This document shows positions 2,424-16,500 of a stretch of DNA of 20,000 nucleotides, piece by piece (positions within the stretch are counted from its first letter, which is position 1; each line of letters begins with the position of its first letter). The notes beneath the pieces are model-generated. The model did no database searches, had not been told where the DNA came from, and saw only the letters and a program-made list of their open reading frames with translations. The stretch is from the IMG/VR virus record IMGVR_UViG_3300049846_000869; one strand, written 5' to 3'. The position numbers and the translations under genes were made by a program. The stretch comes from an uncultured virus (IMG/VR IMGVR_UViG_3300049846_000869). Taxonomy: Duplodnaviria; Heunggongvirae; Uroviricota; Caudoviricetes.

Positions 2424-2446
2424 AGTGATTACATTTCCTTCTTGGG

Positions 2447-2454
2447 TATTTATT
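2447..2454 (-). promoter_or_regulatory. T4-type late promoter motif (AATAAATA) upstream of kinase paralog 1
   Basis: Minus strand reads aaTAAATAcccaagaaggaaatgtaatcactATG. Confidence 0.55.
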
Positions 2455-2460
2455 AAACCC

Positions 2461-2503
2461 TTAAATACCCCTATAGAGGATATCCTTACGCGAGCGTTAG
2501 GAT
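2461..2503 (+). repeat. TAAATA-N18-TTACGCKAGCGTTAGG element, copy 1
   Basis: TAAATA at 2462, TTACG at 2486; imperfect palindrome ATCCTTACGCGAGCGTTAGGAT. Confidence 0.75.
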
Positions 2504-2593
2504 TAAGCTATTAGGAAACGGTGGGAAGATTTTAGGTGATAACAGGGTAACGCTCATCAGGATTAGGAGCGGTTACTAGATGGGTAGAAAGTC

Positions 2594-2640
2594 CTTAAAT
2601 AGCCTATTTGACCTATCCCTTACGCTAGCGTTAGGGTTTA
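2594..2640 (+). repeat. TAAATA-N18-TTACGCKAGCGTTAGG element, copy 2
   Basis: TAAATA at 2596, TTACG at 2620; CCCTTACGCTAGCGTTAGGG. Confidence 0.8.
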
Positions 2641-2676
2641 TTAGGTGAACAGGAAAGAAAGGGTGTTTATAATTGT

Positions 2677-2726
2677 GATATCATGTTGATATCGTACTGA
2701 TATTATAGGGATATTGTTATAATATC
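2677..2726 (+). repeat. Five RATATY motifs at 11-bp phase
   Basis: GATATC 2677, GATATC 2688, GATATT 2699, GATATT 2710, AATATC 2721. Confidence 0.7.
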
Positions 2727-2789
2727 GTATGGCGGGTTATAATAAACGATAGGAGAAGCATAAACGAGCAATCTAAGTATACCCTGCGT

Positions 2790-3005
2790 GTAAAAAGCTT
2801 TGCAACTTTTTGATAACATTGAAAAAAGTTGCGTCAATTAATGTTTTAGAAAGTTTTGTAAAGTTTTTTGTAATCTTTTTTAATCGTTATTAATGATTAG
2901 AAAACCCTTTAAAAAGCTTTCTTATTTTTTCTGAGGCGTTATTAATAAAAATTCCATAAGCTTTTTTAAGGGTTTTTTTATTCTTGATTAACTTTCCTCA
3001 TTAAA
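2790..3005. other. AT-rich tract with poly-T/poly-A runs (possible unwinding element)
   Basis: Visibly very low GC; inverted repeat GCAACTTTTT/AAAAAGTTGC at about 2802-2833; repeated AAAGTTTT(T)TGTA. Confidence 0.55.
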
Positions 3006-3006
3006 G

Positions 3007-3201
3007 TTGTCAACAGGTTATCCACAGGATATCCACATATCAACAGGCTGTCCACAGGATATCCACAGGGGTTGTTGATAAAGTGTGGATAACTTTTTTC
3101 ATGGTAAAACAATCCTATAGGAAACCTCAATAAAACTTTCGGAAAAGTGCCGAAAGGCTTATAAAGATTTTCCTTTATCTCAGGTTTATGCCTGTGGATA
3201 A
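3007..3201. promoter_or_regulatory. Cluster of DnaA boxes (oriC-like or DnaA-titrating array)
   Basis: Perfect TTATCCACA at 3018 (+), 3084 (-) and 3193 (-); near matches at 3007, 3029, 3037, 3048, 3059 (+) and 3073 (-); mostly 11-bp spacing. Confidence 0.8.
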
Positions 3202-3551
3202 CTTTTTTCCGAGTTGTTAAAGAGCGTCCAGAAAAGACTGGCAAAAAATCGAACAAGGCCGTATCCGGATAGTTGAGAACGATTCTCAACACCTAGAAGT
3301 CGGCCATCTACCATTATATCGCGTTTGGCTTTTCTAGTCCATTTATTATTTCCGAGAATGTTTTATTAATACAACATGGCTTCGGAAAGTGTTGGAATTC
3401 TACCACAGGTTCCGAGGTTGTCCATTTGTATATTCACCGGTTTATGAAATCTGAAAGATGTTACATAATACTGTTGACGGCTTATAATTTTTCTGGCAAA
3501 ATGGGTGTGGAAGGTTGGTGGTAGGGCGTCGTTTTTTGTGGCACTCTCTGC

Positions 3552-3580
3552 TTGACATTGTTGGGATGTGAATGTAGTAT
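3552..3580 (+). promoter_or_regulatory. Sigma70-type early promoter; transcript probably leaderless
   Basis: TTGACA-N17-TAGTAT; ATG begins 7 nt after the -10 box. Confidence 0.75.
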
Positions 3581-3586
3581 GGTGAG

Positions 3587-8872: not shown

Positions 8873-8893
8873 GAATAAAGTTTCCAAAAGGTG

Positions 8894-8922
8894 TTGACAG
8901 TTACTAGTAACTGTTATATACT
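8894..8922 (+). promoter_or_regulatory. Sigma70-type promoter with an overlapping 18-bp perfect palindrome
   Basis: TTGACA-N17-TATACT; ACAGTTACTAGTAACTGT at 8897-8914. Confidence 0.85.
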
Positions 8923-8928
8923 TGTTTT

Positions 8929-9227
8929 GTCTTGTGGCGGATAAGACCCGTTCTTCGGGGGAAACGCACCCAGTACAGACATGGGCTGGGGTACAAGTAG
9001 TCATAGGAAGCTTAATGCCGATGTAACCTAAGCGTATGCCATGTAAGGCTTGGGGGAGGGCGGTTCGGTTGGTACCATACTAATTATGGCAAGAAGACGA
9101 CCGATTGCAGGTGAGAATCCTGTCAAGATGTTGAAGGGGATATAGCTAGTCTCCGGAGTCTTGTAGCAAAATAAAGCGACTTATATCAAGACGAAAGTTG
9201 TAGGGGTTTGCATCCCTGCCAAGGCAC
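8929..9227 (+). ncRNA. Putative structured ncRNA transcript with two tRNA-like units (8929-9130, 9158-9225)
   Basis: No long ORF between a promoter and a terminator; acceptor-like and T-arm-like stems; several internal hairpins. Confidence 0.7.
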
Positions 9228-9228
9228 T

Positions 9229-9259
9229 AAAAAGGGGACTCATCGAGTCCCCTTTTTTT
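9229..9259. terminator. Bidirectional intrinsic terminator
   Basis: AAAAA GGGGACTC ATC GAGTCCCC TTTTTTT between convergent units. Confidence 0.85.
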
Positions 9260-9605
9260 ATTTCTTCAAAGATTCCCTGAACCTCTCCGCTTCCTCGTCC
9301 AACACCTCGGGATGTGCCTTGATGTAGGCCAGACGCTCTCCGTGGAACAGGTCAACCCCACGATTGTACTTGTCTCGGGTGCTACGAACGGTACAGATGA
9401 ACTCGTCCACGACCAATAGAGCCTCATGGACGGCAACAAGTTGGTCCTCGATGCTAGTGTTGAGGTCGGTCATGTTCTGCTCTGCGGTGAACTCTCTGGC
9501 CCCAACTAACTTAGCAGCATCACGCAGTTTGCCAGCGATTAGTTCCAGATTGTCAGCATGGACCGATAAAGCACCAGCAACCTTTCTGTCTAATTCTTTA
9601 TACAT
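9258..9605 (-). CDS. Hypothetical helical protein
   Basis: AGGA SD; follows 9607-10314 and ends at the terminator. Confidence 0.75.
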   Translation of the reverse strand: MYKELDRKVAGALSVHADNLELIAGKLRDAAKLVGAREFTAEQNMTDLNTSIEDQLVAVHEALLVVDEFICTVRSTRDKYNRGVDLFHGERLAYIKAHPEVLDEEAERFRESLKK

Positions 9606-9606
9606 T

Positions 9607-10314
9607 TTAGTTTCCTACTTCCAAATCTTTGGTAATTTCATCCCATTTTTTCATGATTACCTTAAGCCTTTCAAGATGCGAAACTCGACTCTTATACGGA
9701 GGCAACAAAGCCTTGGCAATCGTCTTTTCCCCGCTCTCATGTTGAATAACCATAAGAGCCGTGATGTTCAAAATATCCCTGAACTTTTCGATATGGTTGA
9801 GCCTGTTACTTTGACTGAACATATCGTACTTCTCCACGATAGGGAGGAAACGGTTGATTACGGCATTGTAAGTCCTAGGCGTTTTCTTACGAAATTCCGC
9901 TTCATCGGCGGTCGAAGGATTAATGTCCATGACGAGCCTAGAGAATCGTTCGACTCGCCCTCCCGCAATTTCTCGATAATATTTCCAATCTCCCAGAGCA
10001 TCAGGATAAGTCATATAAGCACTTATCACAACTTCGTAGGAGCCATTACCTTTGGTGCCACCATATCGTCTATGACTGGCATAGGTGGTTACTCTAAGCG
10101 TACCGCACATCAGTTCCAATTTTGACTTAATTGAAAAATGAGGGTAACTACCCGTATCCAGTTCAGATTCCGTTGTCATTTTAGGCTTGGCCTTATCGTA
10201 CAGAGGAAGGCCGAATTTCTCGTACATATCCAAGAACTTCGGGTTCTCCATAAGCCCATCAACCGCTAGGTTGTGTTGGGTGTCCAAATAATCAGCGATA
10301 TCCTTGAACTTCAT
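9607..10314 (-). CDS. Hypothetical protein
   Basis: 235-aa ORF with AGGAG SD. Confidence 0.8.
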   Translation of the reverse strand: MKFKDIADYLDTQHNLAVDGLMENPKFLDMYEKFGLPLYDKAKPKMTTESELDTGSYPHFSIKSKLELMCGTLRVTTYASHRRYGGTKGNGSYEVVISAYMTYPDALGDWKYYREIAGGRVERFSRLVMDINPSTADEAEFRKKTPRTYNAVINRFLPIVEKYDMFSQSNRLNHIEKFRDILNITALMVIQHESGEKTIAKALLPPYKSRVSHLERLKVIMKKWDEITKDLEVGN

Positions 10315-10383
10315 GCCTACTCCTATGGGTTCTACCCGTTGAACTGACAGCCTAACATCTTGGAACTACATTAGCAATACCCC

Positions 10384-10411
10384 TTGACAAAAAATTATAA
10401 GCGTGTATAGT
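10384..10411 (+). promoter_or_regulatory. Sigma70-type promoter
   Basis: TTGACA-N16-TATAGT. Confidence 0.65.
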
Positions 10412-10431
10412 AGGGTCTACGAGGTATTCTT

Positions 10432-12020: not shown

Positions 12021-12626
12021 ATGACACAAATGCCTTCAGTACAATATGGCGGTGAACGCCTATACATAACGCCCTTCTCCTTCAAGCATGGAGATGACAA
12101 GGTGTGTTATTACCATTGCTCCGAATTCCAGCCTATGGGTGGTTCAGAATTCGAATGGCGTTCAGAATTTAGCCTACCTAAGAAACTCTGGTATAAACTC
12201 GTAGGGGCTTCTACCAGACTGTTCGGGTATAACCGTCTTTATTTAAAATGGTGGGTTATTAGATATGTGTGGGATTATACGATACCTTTCGTAGCATCAG
12301 AGATTTACGATGACCATCTTGGATTGCCTTTCACACTTATGATTGGTGTGGAACAACATGATGTGGTTCAGTTTCAATACTTGTGTCCTACAGACGCATT
12401 TATCTCTAAGAAATTGACTGAAGCTTATCCTTTCCCGGACACTAACGAATTCAAGTTCTCACCAGATGGTCCTCTCTGTTATGTTGATGACAGCCCAGAG
12501 TACCATGATGAAAATGTTCGATACCAGAAGCGCAAGTTCGAGGAATGGCGTAAGTACAAAGCTTGGGAATACACCCAGCAGTTGCTTGGCCGACAGATTT
12601 CGTATATCGTAGAATTAGACACATAA
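12021..12626 (+). CDS. Hypothetical aromatic-rich protein
   Basis: 201-aa ORF directly after a promoter. Confidence 0.75.
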   Translation: MTQMPSVQYGGERLYITPFSFKHGDDKVCYYHCSEFQPMGGSEFEWRSEFSLPKKLWYKLVGASTRLFGYNRLYLKWWVIRYVWDYTIPFVASEIYDDHLGLPFTLMIGVEQHDVVQFQYLCPTDAFISKKLTEAYPFPDTNEFKFSPDGPLCYVDDSPEYHDENVRYQKRKFEEWRKYKAWEYTQQLLGRQISYIVELDT

Positions 12627-12636
12627 GGGACTGCAC

Positions 12637-12873
12637 ATGAACGAAAAGATTTCAGACGAAGAAATTCTAGCAGAGACTAACACTCTCGAAATTGATGAGG
12701 ACGATGTTATTTCGGACGACCCTCTTGATGAGGATGATGCCTCCAGAGATGATATCTACGGTGTCGAGGACGAGTATGGGTATGGCTCTGATGAGGGTCT
12801 TGAGGAATACATCCGTGAAACCGGGCTTTATGACGGTAACATGGACGGGCTTGAGAAAGGCTATGACTACTAA
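12637..12873 (+). CDS. Highly acidic small protein
   Basis: AAGGGG SD; very Asp/Glu-rich. Confidence 0.7.
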   Translation: MNEKISDEEILAETNTLEIDEDDVISDDPLDEDDASRDDIYGVEDEYGYGSDEGLEEYIRETGLYDGNMDGLEKGYDY

Positions 12874-13096
12874 GTACGCTATCAAGTACCGTTATTCTGA
12901 TACGGGATGGCTTCTTCCGTCAGTAGAACTTTTCGATGATGATGGAGATGCCTACTTCAAGGCTGCTGCCGAAGAAAAGGCTTCCAAGGAATCATACCAG
13001 AAGTGTGTTGATGCTGGTATTGATGTGCCCTTTATTGTCGAATTTAAGGTAGTCCCTATGGAAAAGGACTGTATAGGGAGATGGTGTCAGGTATAA
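12863..13096 (+). CDS. Hypothetical protein (start MTTKYAI)
   Basis: AAGG SD; overlaps the previous stop. Confidence 0.65.
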   Translation: MTTKYAIKYRYSDTGWLLPSVELFDDDGDAYFKAAAEEKASKESYQKCVDAGIDVPFIVEFKVVPMEKDCIGRWCQV

Positions 13097-13099
13097 ATA
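13092..13099 (+). promoter_or_regulatory. Perfect T4 late promoter consensus TATAAATA
   Basis: TATAAATA 8 nt before ATG 13108. Confidence 0.7.
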
Positions 13100-13107
13100 C
13101 TGGTACC

Positions 13108-13638
13108 ATGAAGATACTTTCACTATTAAAAGAAGTTACCTTATCCCGTTTAATGCGACAGGATTCCGCCCATTCTACAGGGGCTATTTCAGCCTTCAGA
13201 GGGCAGTATTCTTGGCGCGAAAACATGCAGCGTCACAGGTCTTTAAAGGCTAAGTTGATGGCTCTAGGATACGGGGTCTCCGAGATTGACGGCAGTTACA
13301 TCGAAGGGTATGATACCCCAGATGCTAAAGAAGTCTCAGAGAAAAGCTTCTTCGTCGTAAATTATAAGGTGAAGGGGTCTGACGACGGTAAACTTGAACT
13401 TGACCTTATCATGTTAGGTCAGGAATTCGACCAAGACAGTATTCTTTCTATTCCTTTTGGACAGAAAGCCCGTCTGGTTGGAACAAGCAACAGAGATGAT
13501 ATGTTTGGTGCTGACAACTCGAACCGCATTGAAGTCGGTTCCATGCGTCCGGGAAAGACAGCCCAATTTATGAGTCGTGTCAGAGGCCGTCCTTTCGTCT
13601 TTGAATGTATCGAAACTAAACCATTGACAACCATCTAA
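13108..13638 (+). CDS. Phage protein (ISAFR...EN..R...L...L...GYG...E.SFFV...QDSIL pattern), start MKILSLLKE
   Basis: Motif pattern I recall from uncharacterised large-phage proteins; late promoter upstream. Confidence 0.8.
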   Translation: MKILSLLKEVTLSRLMRQDSAHSTGAISAFRGQYSWRENMQRHRSLKAKLMALGYGVSEIDGSYIEGYDTPDAKEVSEKSFFVVNYKVKGSDDGKLELDLIMLGQEFDQDSILSIPFGQKARLVGTSNRDDMFGADNSNRIEVGSMRPGKTAQFMSRVRGRPFVFECIETKPLTTI

Positions 13639-13652
13639 ATAGTTGATATTAT
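13624..13652 (+). promoter_or_regulatory. Dual promoter for tRNA-Leu: sigma70-type with embedded TAAATA
   Basis: TTGACA-N17-TATTAT; TAAATA at 13636-13641 inside the spacer. Confidence 0.7.
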
Positions 13653-13661
13653 TGTAAATCT

Positions 13662-13746
13662 GGCCTCTTGGGGGAATTGGTAGACCCGGCAGACTCAAAA
13701 TCTGCTGCCGCGAGGCGTCTCGGTTCGAGTCCGAGAGAGGCCACCA
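13662..13746 (+). tRNA. trnL: tRNA-Leu (CAA)
   Basis: Acceptor GGCCTCT/AGAGGCC, anticodon arm GCAGA-CTCAAAA-TCTGC, long variable arm, TTCGAGT T-loop, encoded CCA. Confidence 0.97.
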
Positions 13747-13770
13747 GATTAAAAAGATTTCCAAAACCCA

Positions 13771-13799
13771 TTGACTCTACCTTCGGGTGTTGGTAATCT
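13771..13799 (+). promoter_or_regulatory. Sigma70-type promoter with extended -10
   Basis: TTGACT-N17-TAATCT preceded by TGn. Confidence 0.65.
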
Positions 13800-13805
13800 T
13801 GATGA

Positions 13806-14285
13806 ACCTTAGCGGCATTTGTAGGGTCTGAGGGTAAAAATTGGTATAGCCAATCTATATCTCGGTGCTTATATGTACCGGCCCCGAACTAAATTCAGAC
13901 AAAATGCCCAAGAATTAGAAAGCCGTGGTAATGCTTGCCTTCCGGCGATGACCACGGGAGAGATTAGGGAAGGCAAAGTTTAAGTTTGTCAGTCTAAAGG
14001 TGATGTAGCGTGATAGACACGCCTGTTACTTGAGGACAAGGCCGAACGAGCGTTTTGGGATTCGCGGTCCCTCGCAAAGTTCTCATAAAACTGAAGAGTC
14101 GAGCGCAACTCTTAAAGTCGGCTGGCATATAGGTGAGCCTTTCACTCTAGTAGTGATTAACAGGTGAGCGCCTCTTCAATGAGGACAATAGACTGGGAAC
14201 AATAGTCCTATATCCCTTCACCCTGACAATTCAATTTCATGCGGTGTTATCTACTTGTAATGCGAAGAACCTTGAGCCGCACATT
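13806..14285 (+). ncRNA. Putative large (about 430-480 nt) structured ncRNA with a pseudoknot
   Basis: No ORF of 60 aa or more; many nested long-range helices and an H-type pseudoknot at 13923-13976. Confidence 0.75.
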
Positions 14286-14299
14286 TACAAAGGTGATAT

Positions 14300-14842
14300 A
14301 TGTTCAGCAAAAATAGTTATCCTGCTTTAGTTATCCTTACCTTCTTGGGCGCTCTGCTCGCAATTCACTACCTAGCACCATCACTAGATGAGGTTACGCT
14401 CGCACCTGTTGCGACACCACCCACGCTACCTGCTTCGGCTGCTGGCGGAACCATCTCCAACATGGTTGGGCTTCCCATCAGAGTCAAAGAACCTTTAGTC
14501 ACGGTGAACGCCGAGAACTACACCGAGTATGTGGCTCTTCATGCTAAGTTGGTCAAATATTACAACGATACCCGTGGTACGGAATTGAAGCCTCTTCGAA
14601 TCTATGTGGCCGATTGGGATTCGTCTGGTCCTCTAGCATACTACACCCAGAAAGGAATTTATGTTCGAGCGGACTCAGTTAACAACGGCGGTCGAGGTTC
14701 GATGATTACCTCTATTGTTGAGGAAACCGCGCACTATGTTTTCGACAAGCATGGCCATAAAGTAACTTCACGACCTGATGACCATACCGATTACGATTGG
14801 TTGATGCTTCGTAAAGAATTTGATGGAATTAGTTTAAAATGA
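14300..14842 (+). CDS. Membrane-anchored or secreted protein with a zincin/SprT-like EExxH...H motif
   Basis: AAGGTG SD; N-terminal hydrophobic helix; Pro/Ala linker; SIVEETAHY...DHTDYDW. Confidence 0.7.
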   Translation: MFSKNSYPALVILTFLGALLAIHYLAPSLDEVTLAPVATPPTLPASAAGGTISNMVGLPIRVKEPLVTVNAENYTEYVALHAKLVKYYNDTRGTELKPLRIYVADWDSSGPLAYYTQKGIYVRADSVNNGGRGSMITSIVEETAHYVFDKHGHKVTSRPDDHTDYDWLMLRKEFDGISLK

Positions 14843-15015
14843 GCAGAATGAAACGATTGATTGATGATATCCTAGCTCCCGTAGATTCTAGGTTTATTCA
14901 ACGAGAAGAACAGCAGGAGCCGTTCCCTGAAGGATTGGCGGAAGCCATCCGTGAAGGAGAGAAGGAGATGGACATGGACAAATATCAAGAGGCCAAAGGA
15001 AAGCCGTTATGCTGA
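14839..15015 (+). CDS. 58-aa hypothetical protein (MSRMKRLIDD...), not in track
   Basis: ATGA overlap with the previous stop. Confidence 0.6.
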   Translation: MSRMKRLIDDILAPVDSRFIQREEQQEPFPEGLAEAIREGEKEMDMDKYQEAKGKPLC

Positions 15016-15152
15016 AGATTCTTGCTATTTTAATTCTGCTTACTGCTGTTGTGTACATTGGTTACAAGTTGCACCAGATTTCCCAATTCCTTGAGAGCAT
15101 GTCCAAGATGTTCGAGAACAAGCACGACAAAGATACCCCACATCTCGGTTGA
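15009..15152 (+). CDS. 47-aa single-TM protein (MLKILAILILLTAVVY...), not in track
   Basis: AAGGA SD; hydrophobic N-terminus. Confidence 0.6.
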   Translation: MLKILAILILLTAVVYIGYKLHQISQFLESMSKMFENKHDKDTPHLG

Positions 15153-15177
15153 CATTGTACATCCATTGTTCTATACT
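15149..15177 (+). promoter_or_regulatory. Sigma70-type promoter
   Basis: TTGACA-N17-TATACT. Confidence 0.8.
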
Positions 15178-15195
15178 GAATCCAAGGAGTTACAA

Positions 15196-15399
15196 ATGAA
15201 ACTGAAGATGCTGATTGAAGAAGAGAACCCTCCGTTCATCTTCTTGAAAGGGAACCTCTCCGAAGGGTTCGAGGCTTACGGCCCGTACCGGAACTTCGAT
15301 GAGGCTTCAGCCGCACATGAATTCGAAGAAGGCTGGGTGATGGTACTGGATGTTTCCGGGACTTTCAAGATGGCCAAACCTTCTGACTACACGCTTTAA
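15196..15399 (+). CDS. Hypothetical protein (start MKLKMLIEE)
   Basis: AAGGAG SD after the promoter. Confidence 0.75.
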   Translation: MKLKMLIEEENPPFIFLKGNLSEGFEAYGPYRNFDEASAAHEFEEGWVMVLDVSGTFKMAKPSDYTL

Positions 15400-15410
15400 A
15401 GAGAACCGAA

Positions 15411-15842
15411 ATGCTTGCTACTGCTATTAGAATCGCCTCCCAAGTCCACGAACACCAGAAAGACAAAGGTGGGAACGCTTACATCCTACATCCGATGAGG
15501 GTGATGATGAGGCTCAGGACTTCAGACGAGGAATTGATGGCCATTGCTATCCTCCATGATGTGGTCGAGGACTCTTCTTGGACTCCTGAGATGCTCAAGG
15601 ATGCTGGTATGTCGGACAGGGTGATTACTGCCCTAGGGTTCCTTACCAAACTTCCTACGGACACTTACGAGATGTACATCCAGAGGATGGTGTTCAACAG
15701 GGACGCCATGCTGGTTAAACTTCAGGACTTGAAGGATAACTCGGATATCAGTAGAATGAAGGGTCTGAGAGATAAAGATTTCGAAAGGCTGGTTAAGTAT
15801 AACAAGGCTTATGCCTTTCTTGAAGGAAAGTTAAAGGAGTAA
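15411..15842 (+). CDS. HD-domain RelA/SpoT-like small alarmone hydrolase (Mesh1-like)
   Basis: H..Q.DKGG..YILHP, AILHDVVED and VKLQDLKDN motifs of stand-alone RSH hydrolase domains. Confidence 0.88.
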   Translation: MLATAIRIASQVHEHQKDKGGNAYILHPMRVMMRLRTSDEELMAIAILHDVVEDSSWTPEMLKDAGMSDRVITALGFLTKLPTDTYEMYIQRMVFNRDAMLVKLQDLKDNSDISRMKGLRDKDFERLVKYNKAYAFLEGKLKE

Positions 15843-15845
15843 TGT

Positions 15846-16190
15846 ATGGACTTCGAACAGTTTTCAGAAATTGCTGGTCATTCTGACCGAGTGCTGGTAG
15901 ATGGTTATGAATACGACCATATGCGTTTCACCGCCGAGGGTATTATCTTCGAGGATACCGGCGATGAAAAGAATGCTTTGAAGTTCGACAGGCTTAATTT
16001 CGAACAGGCTCGCCCTTTCGGTGATGAAATCGAAGTGGATGATGACAACGGGTACATCCGTCGCATCAAGTGTTTGAAGATTAAGGCTCCCGAGGTCAAC
16101 AAGGATGACCGTTTCTCCAATGGAATCATCGAGTTAGATGAAGATGACCCGTCCGAGCAGTTATACGGAAAAAAGACTGAAAACGCTTAA
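15846..16190 (+). CDS. Acidic hypothetical protein
   Basis: AAGGAG SD. Confidence 0.75.
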   Translation: MDFEQFSEIAGHSDRVLVDGYEYDHMRFTAEGIIFEDTGDEKNALKFDRLNFEQARPFGDEIEVDDDNGYIRRIKCLKIKAPEVNKDDRFSNGIIELDEDDPSEQLYGKKTENA

Positions 16191-16198
16191 TTAAAGTA

Positions 16199-16226
16199 TT
16201 GACAGGGGCATTAGATTTGGTATAAT
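16199..16226 (+). promoter_or_regulatory. Strong sigma70-type promoter
   Basis: TTGACA-N16-TATAAT with TGn extension. Confidence 0.8.
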
Positions 16227-16323
16227 ACCCCTCGTTGATTAAGAAAAGACTGGTTACGGTTCTACGGCGTAACAAAGTTTCTGGGTAGACTGTAGAATAT
16301 CAAACAACAAAGAGGTAAATGAT

Positions 16324-16500
16324 ATGCGTACTATTCGAATTGGAACCAAGACCCCGGCTGCTAATACTGCTGTTCGAGTGAAGTTGGATAACGGCAAGAC
16401 CGTTGCTGCCACCTTCAACGGCACGGCTTTCGTTGGTGCCGATGGCGCTCCGGTTGCCGGTGCCGTCGCCTATTTCATTCCGCGCAAGACCGCTAACTAA
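16324..16500 (+). CDS. 58-aa Ala/Thr/Gly-rich protein (MRTIRIGTKTP...), not in track
   Basis: GAGGT SD; own promoter and terminator. Confidence 0.8.
   Translation: MRTIRIGTKTPAANTAVRVKLDNGKTVAATFNGTAFVGADGAPVAGAVAYFIPRKTAN

Follow-up and report, generated by a model that had tools for sequence, protein, structure and literature searches.

A putative processed 248-nt RNA with joined ends in the tRNA-linked leader of an orphan phage

What is made from the 553 bases that separate a tRNA-Leu(CAA) gene from the next gene (positions 13747-14299) within what seems to be a phage early region? A preliminary description, made from the sequence of the 20,000-nt stretch of DNA that we analysed (hereafter, the window), had read most of this gap (13806-14285) as a single noncoding RNA of ~480 nt in three domains, pseudoknotted and driven by its own promoter, which would represent a new large structured RNA class. 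The evidence points instead to domain 3 alone, which probably gives rise to a stable phage RNA that is small, belongs to no known family, and may be circular.

Layout and folding of the leader

That the gap is free of ORFs was confirmed: the longest ORF in 13747-14299 is at most 45 aa on either strand, and all of the forward frames contain each of the three stop codon types. The rest of the genome is less tightly packed than had been described, with further gaps at 8873-9363, 10126-10431, and 2424-3586. Upstream, the tRNA-Leu gene (13662-13746, + strand; called by ARAGORN, matched by the Rfam tRNA model at 54.8 bits, and with its CCA encoded) is preceded by a sigma-70-type promoter (13624-13652, + strand; TTGACA-17-TATTAT, 11 of 12 positions matching, with TG before the second hexamer), which likely drives the leader as well, by read-through. 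The separate promoter that had been claimed for the RNA did not emerge from our promoter scan, which lists only the tRNA-Leu promoter. The weak candidate closest to that claim, TTGACT (13771-76) with TGG-TAATCT (13794-99; + strand, spacing 17), is TG-extended, but its -10 hexamer matches at only 3 of 6 positions and it is absent from the scan list; it is enclosed by a 16-nt inverted repeat (13754-13800, + strand; 88% complementary, arms 15 nt apart), and the repeat listing shows CCATTGAC to be common to this repeat region and the tRNA-Leu promoter. At the other end, the remainder of the leader (14233-14299, + strand) carries the ribosome-binding site AAGGTGAT of the next gene, and no terminator was found after the leader RNA, between the promoter and that gene. 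The gap is best read as the untranslated leader of a rightward early operon in an orphan freshwater phage, an assignment that forms part of the interpretation of domain 3 that we modestly favour below. As a separate observation, made post hoc, AGGTGA occurs in the leader at 13998, 14131, 14162, and 14291 (+ strand), which amounts to 4 of the 10 copies on the + strand of the 20 kb; three copies lie within the 248-nt RNA described below and the fourth serves ORF180, the gene that follows, as its ribosome-binding site. The other genes use different Shine-Dalgarno words.

Every helix named in the preliminary description could be located, either in a listing of inverted repeats or by direct reading of the sequence. 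The listing contains GGCATTT/AAATGCC of domain 1, CCGTGGT/ACCACGG and TTGCCTTCC/GGAAGGCAA of domain 2, and TTGTCAG/CTGACAA with GGTGA/TCACC, as well as CCTGTTA/TAACAGG, of domain 3; GTCTGA (13826-31) and its partner TCAGAC (13895-900) were read directly. Domain 1 (13814-13908, + strand), a proposed three-way junction, folds with z = -2.35 (6 of 300 shuffles as good) and, in isolation, with helix probabilities of 0.57-0.59. Domain 2 (13923-13976, + strand) is made up of two interleaved perfect stems, S1 (13923-29/13951-57; 7 bp) and S2 (13935-43/13968-76; 9 bp), which from their sequence could form an H-type pseudoknot or, alternatively, two competing hairpins. Interleaved perfect stems of 7 and 9 bp occur four times in the 20-kb window, against a mean of 0.125 per dinucleotide-shuffled 20 kb, and just 5 of 40 shuffles contain any such arrangement; the remaining three are clustered at 2911-3091, where the DNA is rich in repeats and resembles an origin. 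At the sequence level, the pseudoknot proposed for domain 2 is not a chance feature. Domains 1 and 2 both lie outside the RNA that we map below.

A stretch of 35 nt within domain 1 (13838-13872, + strand) matches the full 34-position model of the ToxI type III antitoxin, with 13 of the first 14 model positions identical. The match is a single copy outside the mapped RNA, in contrast to a tandem array of ~36-nt repeats, and it scores 15.6 bits (E 1.5-6.1) against a gathering score of 50; Pfam and PHROGs scans of the window ORFs found no ToxN-type endoRNase gene nearby. We rejected ToxI membership on these three counts. The match is probably due to chance, a pseudo-ToxI decoy being conceivable.

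Folding against shuffled controls, a check that had been proposed for the RNA, gave an ordinary result for the whole gap (z = -1.12 on the + strand, with 18 of 100 shuffles as good; z = -1.15 on the - strand). That 13806-14285 constitutes one large GOLLD/ROOL-like noncoding RNA with its own promoter is hard to sustain. This reading draws on the presence of all the helices, on pseudoknot stems that are rarer than chance, on the z-score of domain 1, and on the adjoining tRNA gene, and we nevertheless consider it improbable: the RNA ends mapped below cut it at 13984↓13985 and 14232↓14233, the z-score of the whole gap is only -1.1, the promoter is weak, and the searches reported below returned neither a family match nor a homologue.

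RNA-library contigs and the head-to-tail joint

Sixteen public runs contain part of 13000-15500, and four of these were compared with the window over 12500-16000: X2 and X3, from DNA, and X12 and X14, from RNA. The small shares (0.05-0.15) of X5-X11, X13, X15, and X16 (wastewater, groundwater, sludge, and others) cannot be taken to indicate habitat or conservation. X12 and X14 were obtained from riverine metatranscriptomes, both in 2018 and of like size, and may derive from one sampling campaign; both also contain pieces of foreign tRNA-Leu genes.

In X12, a 257-nt contig consists of 14 letters of 14219-14232 fused directly to 13985-14227, and in X14, a 160-nt contig corresponds to 14058-14217, in both cases with 0 differences from the window. 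Of the transcript expected under the preliminary description, domain 3 is thus represented in both RNA libraries, by contigs that match it at 100% identity. The 14-letter 5' part of the X12 contig occurs in the window solely at 14219-14232, and the start of the contig does not continue leftward into 13971-13984. The resulting back-joint, from 14232 to 13985, defines a head-to-tail unit of 248 nt, and its position is unambiguous on both sides because G13984 differs from C14232 and A14233 from U13985. The joint marks both ends of a discrete species, be the molecule a circle, a concatemer, or a ligated linear RNA. In place of the single ~480-nt RNA of the preliminary description, the mapped species is domain 3 (13985-14232), with domains 1 and 2 outside it; we assign it to the + strand, as suggested by the rightward promoters and genes alone. 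On these grounds, we lean towards the view that domain 3 by itself is a processed, stable 248-nt RNA with joined ends. Its true circularity in vivo is a separate matter, which we regard as a serious but somewhat doubtful possibility.

The joint is seen in a single contig with a k-mer depth of 4.1 and 14 letters beyond the joint, which is below the 31-letter threshold for counting bridges, and it does not appear in the automated table of joints. The contigs reveal neither the strand, the amount, nor the ends of an RNA, and the gaps in RNA-contig cover of X12 and X14 at 12500-13660, 13790-13984, and 14233-16000 say nothing about domains 1 and 2 or about mRNAs.

These properties of the joint bear directly on the alternative that the locus acts only in cis, as a long 5' UTR of the ORF180 operon in which domain 3 is merely the most nuclease-resistant decay intermediate and the joint an artefact of cDNA synthesis or library ligation on a linear fragment whose two ends the helix keeps together. 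Such an account fits an RNA flanked by a promoter and the following gene and lacking a terminator downstream of it, a fold energy that is ordinary for this genome (see below), and a joint known from one contig at a depth of 4.1; reverse-transcriptase template jumping or end-to-end ligation during library preparation could yield the same joint from a linear RNA. Every 31-mer of such an assembled contig would be expected to occur in reads. An artefact would need to be present in reads frequent enough to assemble at a total depth of about 4, and discrete ends at the foot of a helix would still have been mapped, which means that a defined RNA species exists regardless. We judge the purely cis-acting account, the main rival to our reading, rather unlikely; if the joint did prove artefactual, an ordinary orphan processed leader fragment would remain.

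The joint could equally come from a DNA circle, and we considered whether domain 3 might be a small inverted-repeat mobile element (ends TG...CA), present as an excised circle or tandem duplication, or else a captured viroid-like RNA replicon, in which case the river RNA libraries would contain its free circles and not phage transcripts. Domain 3 does have imperfect terminal inverted repeats (15 nt at 80%), and its 248 nt fall within the reported viroid range of 220-450 nt (PMC8781251). In DNA, however, the contigs are colinear across both boundaries: X3 contains identical short contigs that include 13866-14149 and 14182-14332, and X2 contains one contig over 13549-14266 with 5 differences in 718. 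The domain 3 words that we tried revealed no further copy in IMG/VR, JGI metagenomes, or 185,579 species genomes, and there is neither a flanking target duplication nor a known ribozyme. Samples that differ in year and place agree at 100% identity, which suits a DNA gene better than an RNA replicon. An origin at the DNA level or from a foreign replicon is accordingly highly improbable. The near-identity of X2 over 13549-14266 is itself no sign of selection, as X2 shows 0 differences in 591 positions over 15410-16000 and 140 in 1016 over 14327-15342; neighbouring blocks differ by 0 to 14%, and the X2 and window genomes are therefore mosaic.

We return to the reading of domain 3 as a processed RNA, for which the position of its ends is informative. 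They lie 1 nt before and 3 nt after a perfect 7-bp helix, TTGTCAG (13986-13992, + strand) with CTGACAA (14223-14229, + strand), whose pair probability is 0.95 in the linear and 0.98 in the circular form. This closing stem had been predicted independently of any RNA data, and the joint places the RNA ends at its foot; by our estimate, two points chosen arbitrarily would have a helix of this kind within 3 nt with a probability of about 49 x 4^-7 = 0.003. On either side lie short linkers that are 78% A+U and predicted to be open, the 5' linker AGUUUAAG↓U (13977-13985, + strand), with the RNA 5' end at 13985, and the 3' linker UUC↓AAUUUC (14230-14238, + strand), with the RNA 3' end at 14232. In the energy model their unpaired probabilities are 0.62 and 0.77, respectively, compared with a transcript mean of 0.42, and just 3.4% of 9-nt windows are as open as the 3' linker. 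In a circle, the junction would occupy a 4-nt loop (UUC↓U) capping the terminal helix.

Beyond the closing helix, the folding evidence is weak. Domain 3 has a z-score of about -2.7; of 300 shuffles each time, 2 and 0 did as well in the two runs on the linear form, and 2 did so in the circular form. Among 60 other 248-nt windows of the genome, however, the mean z-score is -0.86 (sd 1.63) and 8 reach -2.7 or lower, and the minus strand of domain 3 scores -2.6; its fold energy is unexceptional against the background of this genome. Of the helices in domain 3, just two are favoured by the energy model: the closing one, at a mean pair probability of 0.95-0.98, and TCACT/AGTGA, at 0.66. The inner helices described earlier are all present in the sequence, but those other than TCACT/AGTGA have probabilities of 0.07 or less and compete with rival pairings. 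Two further ideas about the RNA were rejected, namely, that domain 3 is internally duplicated (its best self-alignment scores 34, with a null of 30 +/- 5.2) and that the 248-nt RNA pairs with the two phage tRNAs, which it does no better than shuffles. Coding around the circle is excluded, with a longest open stretch of 52 aa in either linear or circular form, and a never-ending ORF as in DRT2 was rejected, since 248 is not a multiple of 3 and every frame is closed.

Known families, circle-forming systems, and a proposed mechanism

No match at gathering score was found in Rfam 15, so that the cmscan check suggested in the preliminary description turned up no known family. At E values up to 10, slices of 761, 258, and 191 nt gave chance matches to unrelated families, far below gathering scores; the best outside the tRNA family was the ToxI match of 15.6 bits described above, followed by a handful of 12-15 bits. 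GOLLD, ROOL, and the other large noncoding RNA covariance models did not match at gathering score or at E up to 10. The earlier statement that RNase P and tmRNA signatures are missing held up as well: ARAGORN called no tmRNA, and neither RNA appeared in Rfam at E up to 10. ARAGORN applied to the doubled circle, as a search for permuted genes, gave 0 genes at default and junk calls only under relaxed settings. Like GOLLD and ROOL, the RNA is phage-borne, noncoding, and located beside a tRNA gene, but it is much smaller at 248 nt and matches neither covariance model at any threshold tried; the resemblance is confined to its place next to a tRNA gene. Of the proposed new large structured RNA class, what stands is an RNA without a known family; it is 248 nt long, and its fine structure lacks thermodynamic backing.

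Searches for homologues were likewise negative. Neither blastn against phages and plasmids nor a nucleotide comparison of the whole window with 50,697 phage records returned a match. Five different 20- to 22-mers of domain 3 gave 0 exact matches in IMG/VR, JGI metagenomes, and 185,579 species genomes, with three words used for IMG/VR, one for the JGI metagenomes, and two for the species genomes (one IMG/VR word and the JGI word overlap, and those two results are not independent). The pseudoknot pattern found 18 IMG/VR loci, all of which we rejected as chance matches of about 22 nt. Nor did IMG/VR contain relatives of ORF180 or of the SAM-lyase-like gene upstream. Relatives of ORF164 were found at 19 loci, none of them syntenic, and those of the HD protein at 8 metagenome loci, among which L038 is 87% identical over 14839-16421 and ends before the RNA. 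No homologue was thus found for the covariation analysis proposed in the preliminary description.

A circle with exact ends could in principle be made by a ribozyme, either as a permuted self-splicing intron (a PIE-like group I or a circularly permuted group II arrangement) or by self-cleaving ribozymes with RtcB ligation, and a nonrandom pseudoknot does lie 8 nt upstream of the 5' end. In group I introns, G is the last intron base and U precedes the 5' splice site. The circle starts at U13985 and ends at C14232; only G13984, which precedes it as the omega-G of a permuted group I intron would, suits that layout, whereas its last base is C where U is needed, and group I covariance models (Intron_gpI-type) did not match at E up to 10. 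Circularly permuted group II introns, which are likewise bacterial and release small RNA circles when an internal segment is back-joined, are reported to carry D5/D6 upstream and D1-D4 downstream, with boundaries AY↓ and ↓GUGYG and splice sites typically less than 100 nt apart (PMC8637638). Here, by contrast, the boundaries are AG↓ and ↓AAUUU, 13640-14400 contains no group II match, and the coding gene that starts 67 nt downstream of the circle leaves too little room for D1-D4. Among self-cleaving ribozymes, such as flank the circles of viroid-like RNAs and retrozymes and of which known models alone were covered, hammerhead, hairpin, twister, HDV, hatchet, and pistol gave no Rfam match at E up to 10. 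Archaeal-type intron circles carry a bulge-helix-bulge motif at both cut sites; by inspection, the UUGU after the 5' cut cannot pair with the AUUU after the 3' cut, and we rejected this route, the promoters and Shine-Dalgarno sites being of bacterial type. A ribozyme-made circle is, in sum, very unlikely.

For a processed RNA whose ends are joined by other means, two systems offer parallels. 5S rRNA is released from its 9S precursor by RNase E, which cuts in AU-rich single-stranded segments a few nucleotides beyond the terminal helix on each side; both would be stable RNAs with ends paired in a terminal helix and AU-rich flanking cuts, differing in that 5S rRNA is linear and universal and the 248-nt RNA is an orphan with joined ends. 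The second, and the nearest precedent, is DucS of Bacillus altitudinis, a nonintron noncoding RNA that permuted reads revealed to occur in both a linear and a circular form and whose ligase is reported as unknown (PMC10504365). Both RNAs are DNA-encoded, nonintron, noncoding RNAs of about 200 nt. In that account, DucS does not self-splice in vitro, and its terminal sequence and stem matter; it is also chromosomal, Gram-positive, a primary transcript running from TSS to terminator, and variable in its 5' junctions (PMC10504365). The RNA considered here differs in that it is encoded by a phage, would be released from a leader through a pair of internal cuts, and is represented by one junction. 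For DucS, the criteria are a permuted (chiastic) junction in RNA-seq together with resistance to RNase R, a Northern signal from a junction probe, and slowed migration in gels; on the first of these, the evidence here is one RNA-library contig with 14 letters beyond the joint.

Drawing on these parallels, we propose that the 248-nt RNA would be excised from the leader by cuts in the two short AU-rich single-stranded linkers, presumably by an RNase E-type nuclease. The 5' site at 13984↓13985, AAG↓UUU, has a U at +2, and uridine at +2 is reported to dominate RNase E sites in vivo (PMC5222698). The 3' site, UUC↓AAU, lacks a U at +2 and would suit RNase E only if the cut fell at 14234↓14235 (CAA↓UUU) and were followed by trimming of 2 nt. 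Domains 1 and 2 would remain as upstream leader and, more speculatively, the domain 2 pseudoknot might act as a folding insulator that holds the 5' linker open. The terminal 7-bp helix would keep the 5' and 3' ends adjacent for joining head to tail, and a cellular or phage RNA ligase could seal them into a covalently closed circle with its junction in the UUC↓U loop on the helix. Scans of 44 window ORFs found no RNA ligase, RtcB, or RNase gene; the contig is at least 77 kb long, so that at least 57 kb fall outside the 20-kb window. The exonuclease-resistant product may then accumulate and, early in infection, act on a protein of the host or the phage as a long-lived decoy or scaffold, a role that we favour weakly and that is, on balance, doubtful. 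In its full form, that the phage encodes a closed circular noncoding RNA, neither an intron nor ribozyme-flanked, made by host-type endonuclease cuts and an RNA ligase and serving as an exonuclease-proof decoy, the proposal is a tentative one that we hold to be somewhat short of probable.

Before DucS, according to its report, the sole bacterial circular RNAs reported were self-spliced group I and II introns (PMC10504365), and our search of the literature on circular RNAs found no phage-encoded nonintron circular noncoding RNA. If the proposal is correct, this RNA would extend DucS-like circular noncoding RNAs to phages for the first time and would raise the question of what a phage gains from an RNA circle; its exact ends, simple terminal helix, and open linkers would also make it a compact, clonable substrate for finding bacterial circle-making nucleases and ligases. 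A survey of viroid-like RNAs named DNA-encoded contamination as a possible artefact and retained only circles with known ribozymes; circles that match DNA may carry real biology.

Neighbouring features of the window

Just upstream lies a SAM-lyase-family gene (PF23780, 48.6 bits), and the window also contains two tRNA genes and genes for an HD phosphohydrolase and a cell-wall hydrolase. Small ORFs without a family match make up most of the rest. The gene that follows the leader, ORF180 (14300-14842, + strand), encodes an orphan 180-aa protein with a hydrophobic N-terminus, for which a search of 5.8 billion proteins returned no relative but itself (on a 77,405-nt contig). It offers a weak lead to a zincin-like fold: its Atlas model compares with SprT, YgjP, and M48 zincin-type metallopeptidases at TM scores of 0.43-0.50, all below the bar for naming, and an EETAH...HGH stretch stands in place of HExxH. 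The 140 differences in 1016 positions that separate X2 from the window over 14327-15342 have a period of three, which indicates coding. Elsewhere in the X2 relative, 216 bases (12867-13082) are missing and replaced by 9 other letters, with the loss of most of the ORF at 12692-13096, and 69 other letters replace 67 at 15343-15409.

Several observations concern the other ORF-free parts of the window. The gap at 8873-9363 (+ strand) is a second candidate noncoding RNA gene, with a TTGACA promoter at ~8895-8925, ~330 nt free of ORFs, and a strong hairpin with a T-run at ~9234-9261. Its minimum free energy gives z = -2.59 (1 of 100 shuffles as good), its Rfam matches are driven by the terminator only, and no match was found in phage records, nor in IMG/VR for one 22-mer. 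The region 2440-3210 is origin-like, with six DnaA-box-like 9-mers of the TTATCCACA type, four in one orientation (3018-3026, 3028-3036, 3048-3056, 3058-3066) and two reversed (3084-3092, 3193-3201). Beside them, 2780-2990 is very AT-rich and the motif CCTTACGC-AGCGTTAGG is repeated (2486-2505 and 2619-2637), and the 104-aa ORF at 2978-3292 (- strand) is probably spurious. Two neighbouring ORFs with a slight overlap, on the - strand (1115-1873 and 1806-2423), both weakly match the same part of phrog_15752 (E 3.3e-7 and 2.4e-4), a family annotated as protein kinase/inhibitor of host transcription, and represent either a tandem pair or one disrupted gene.
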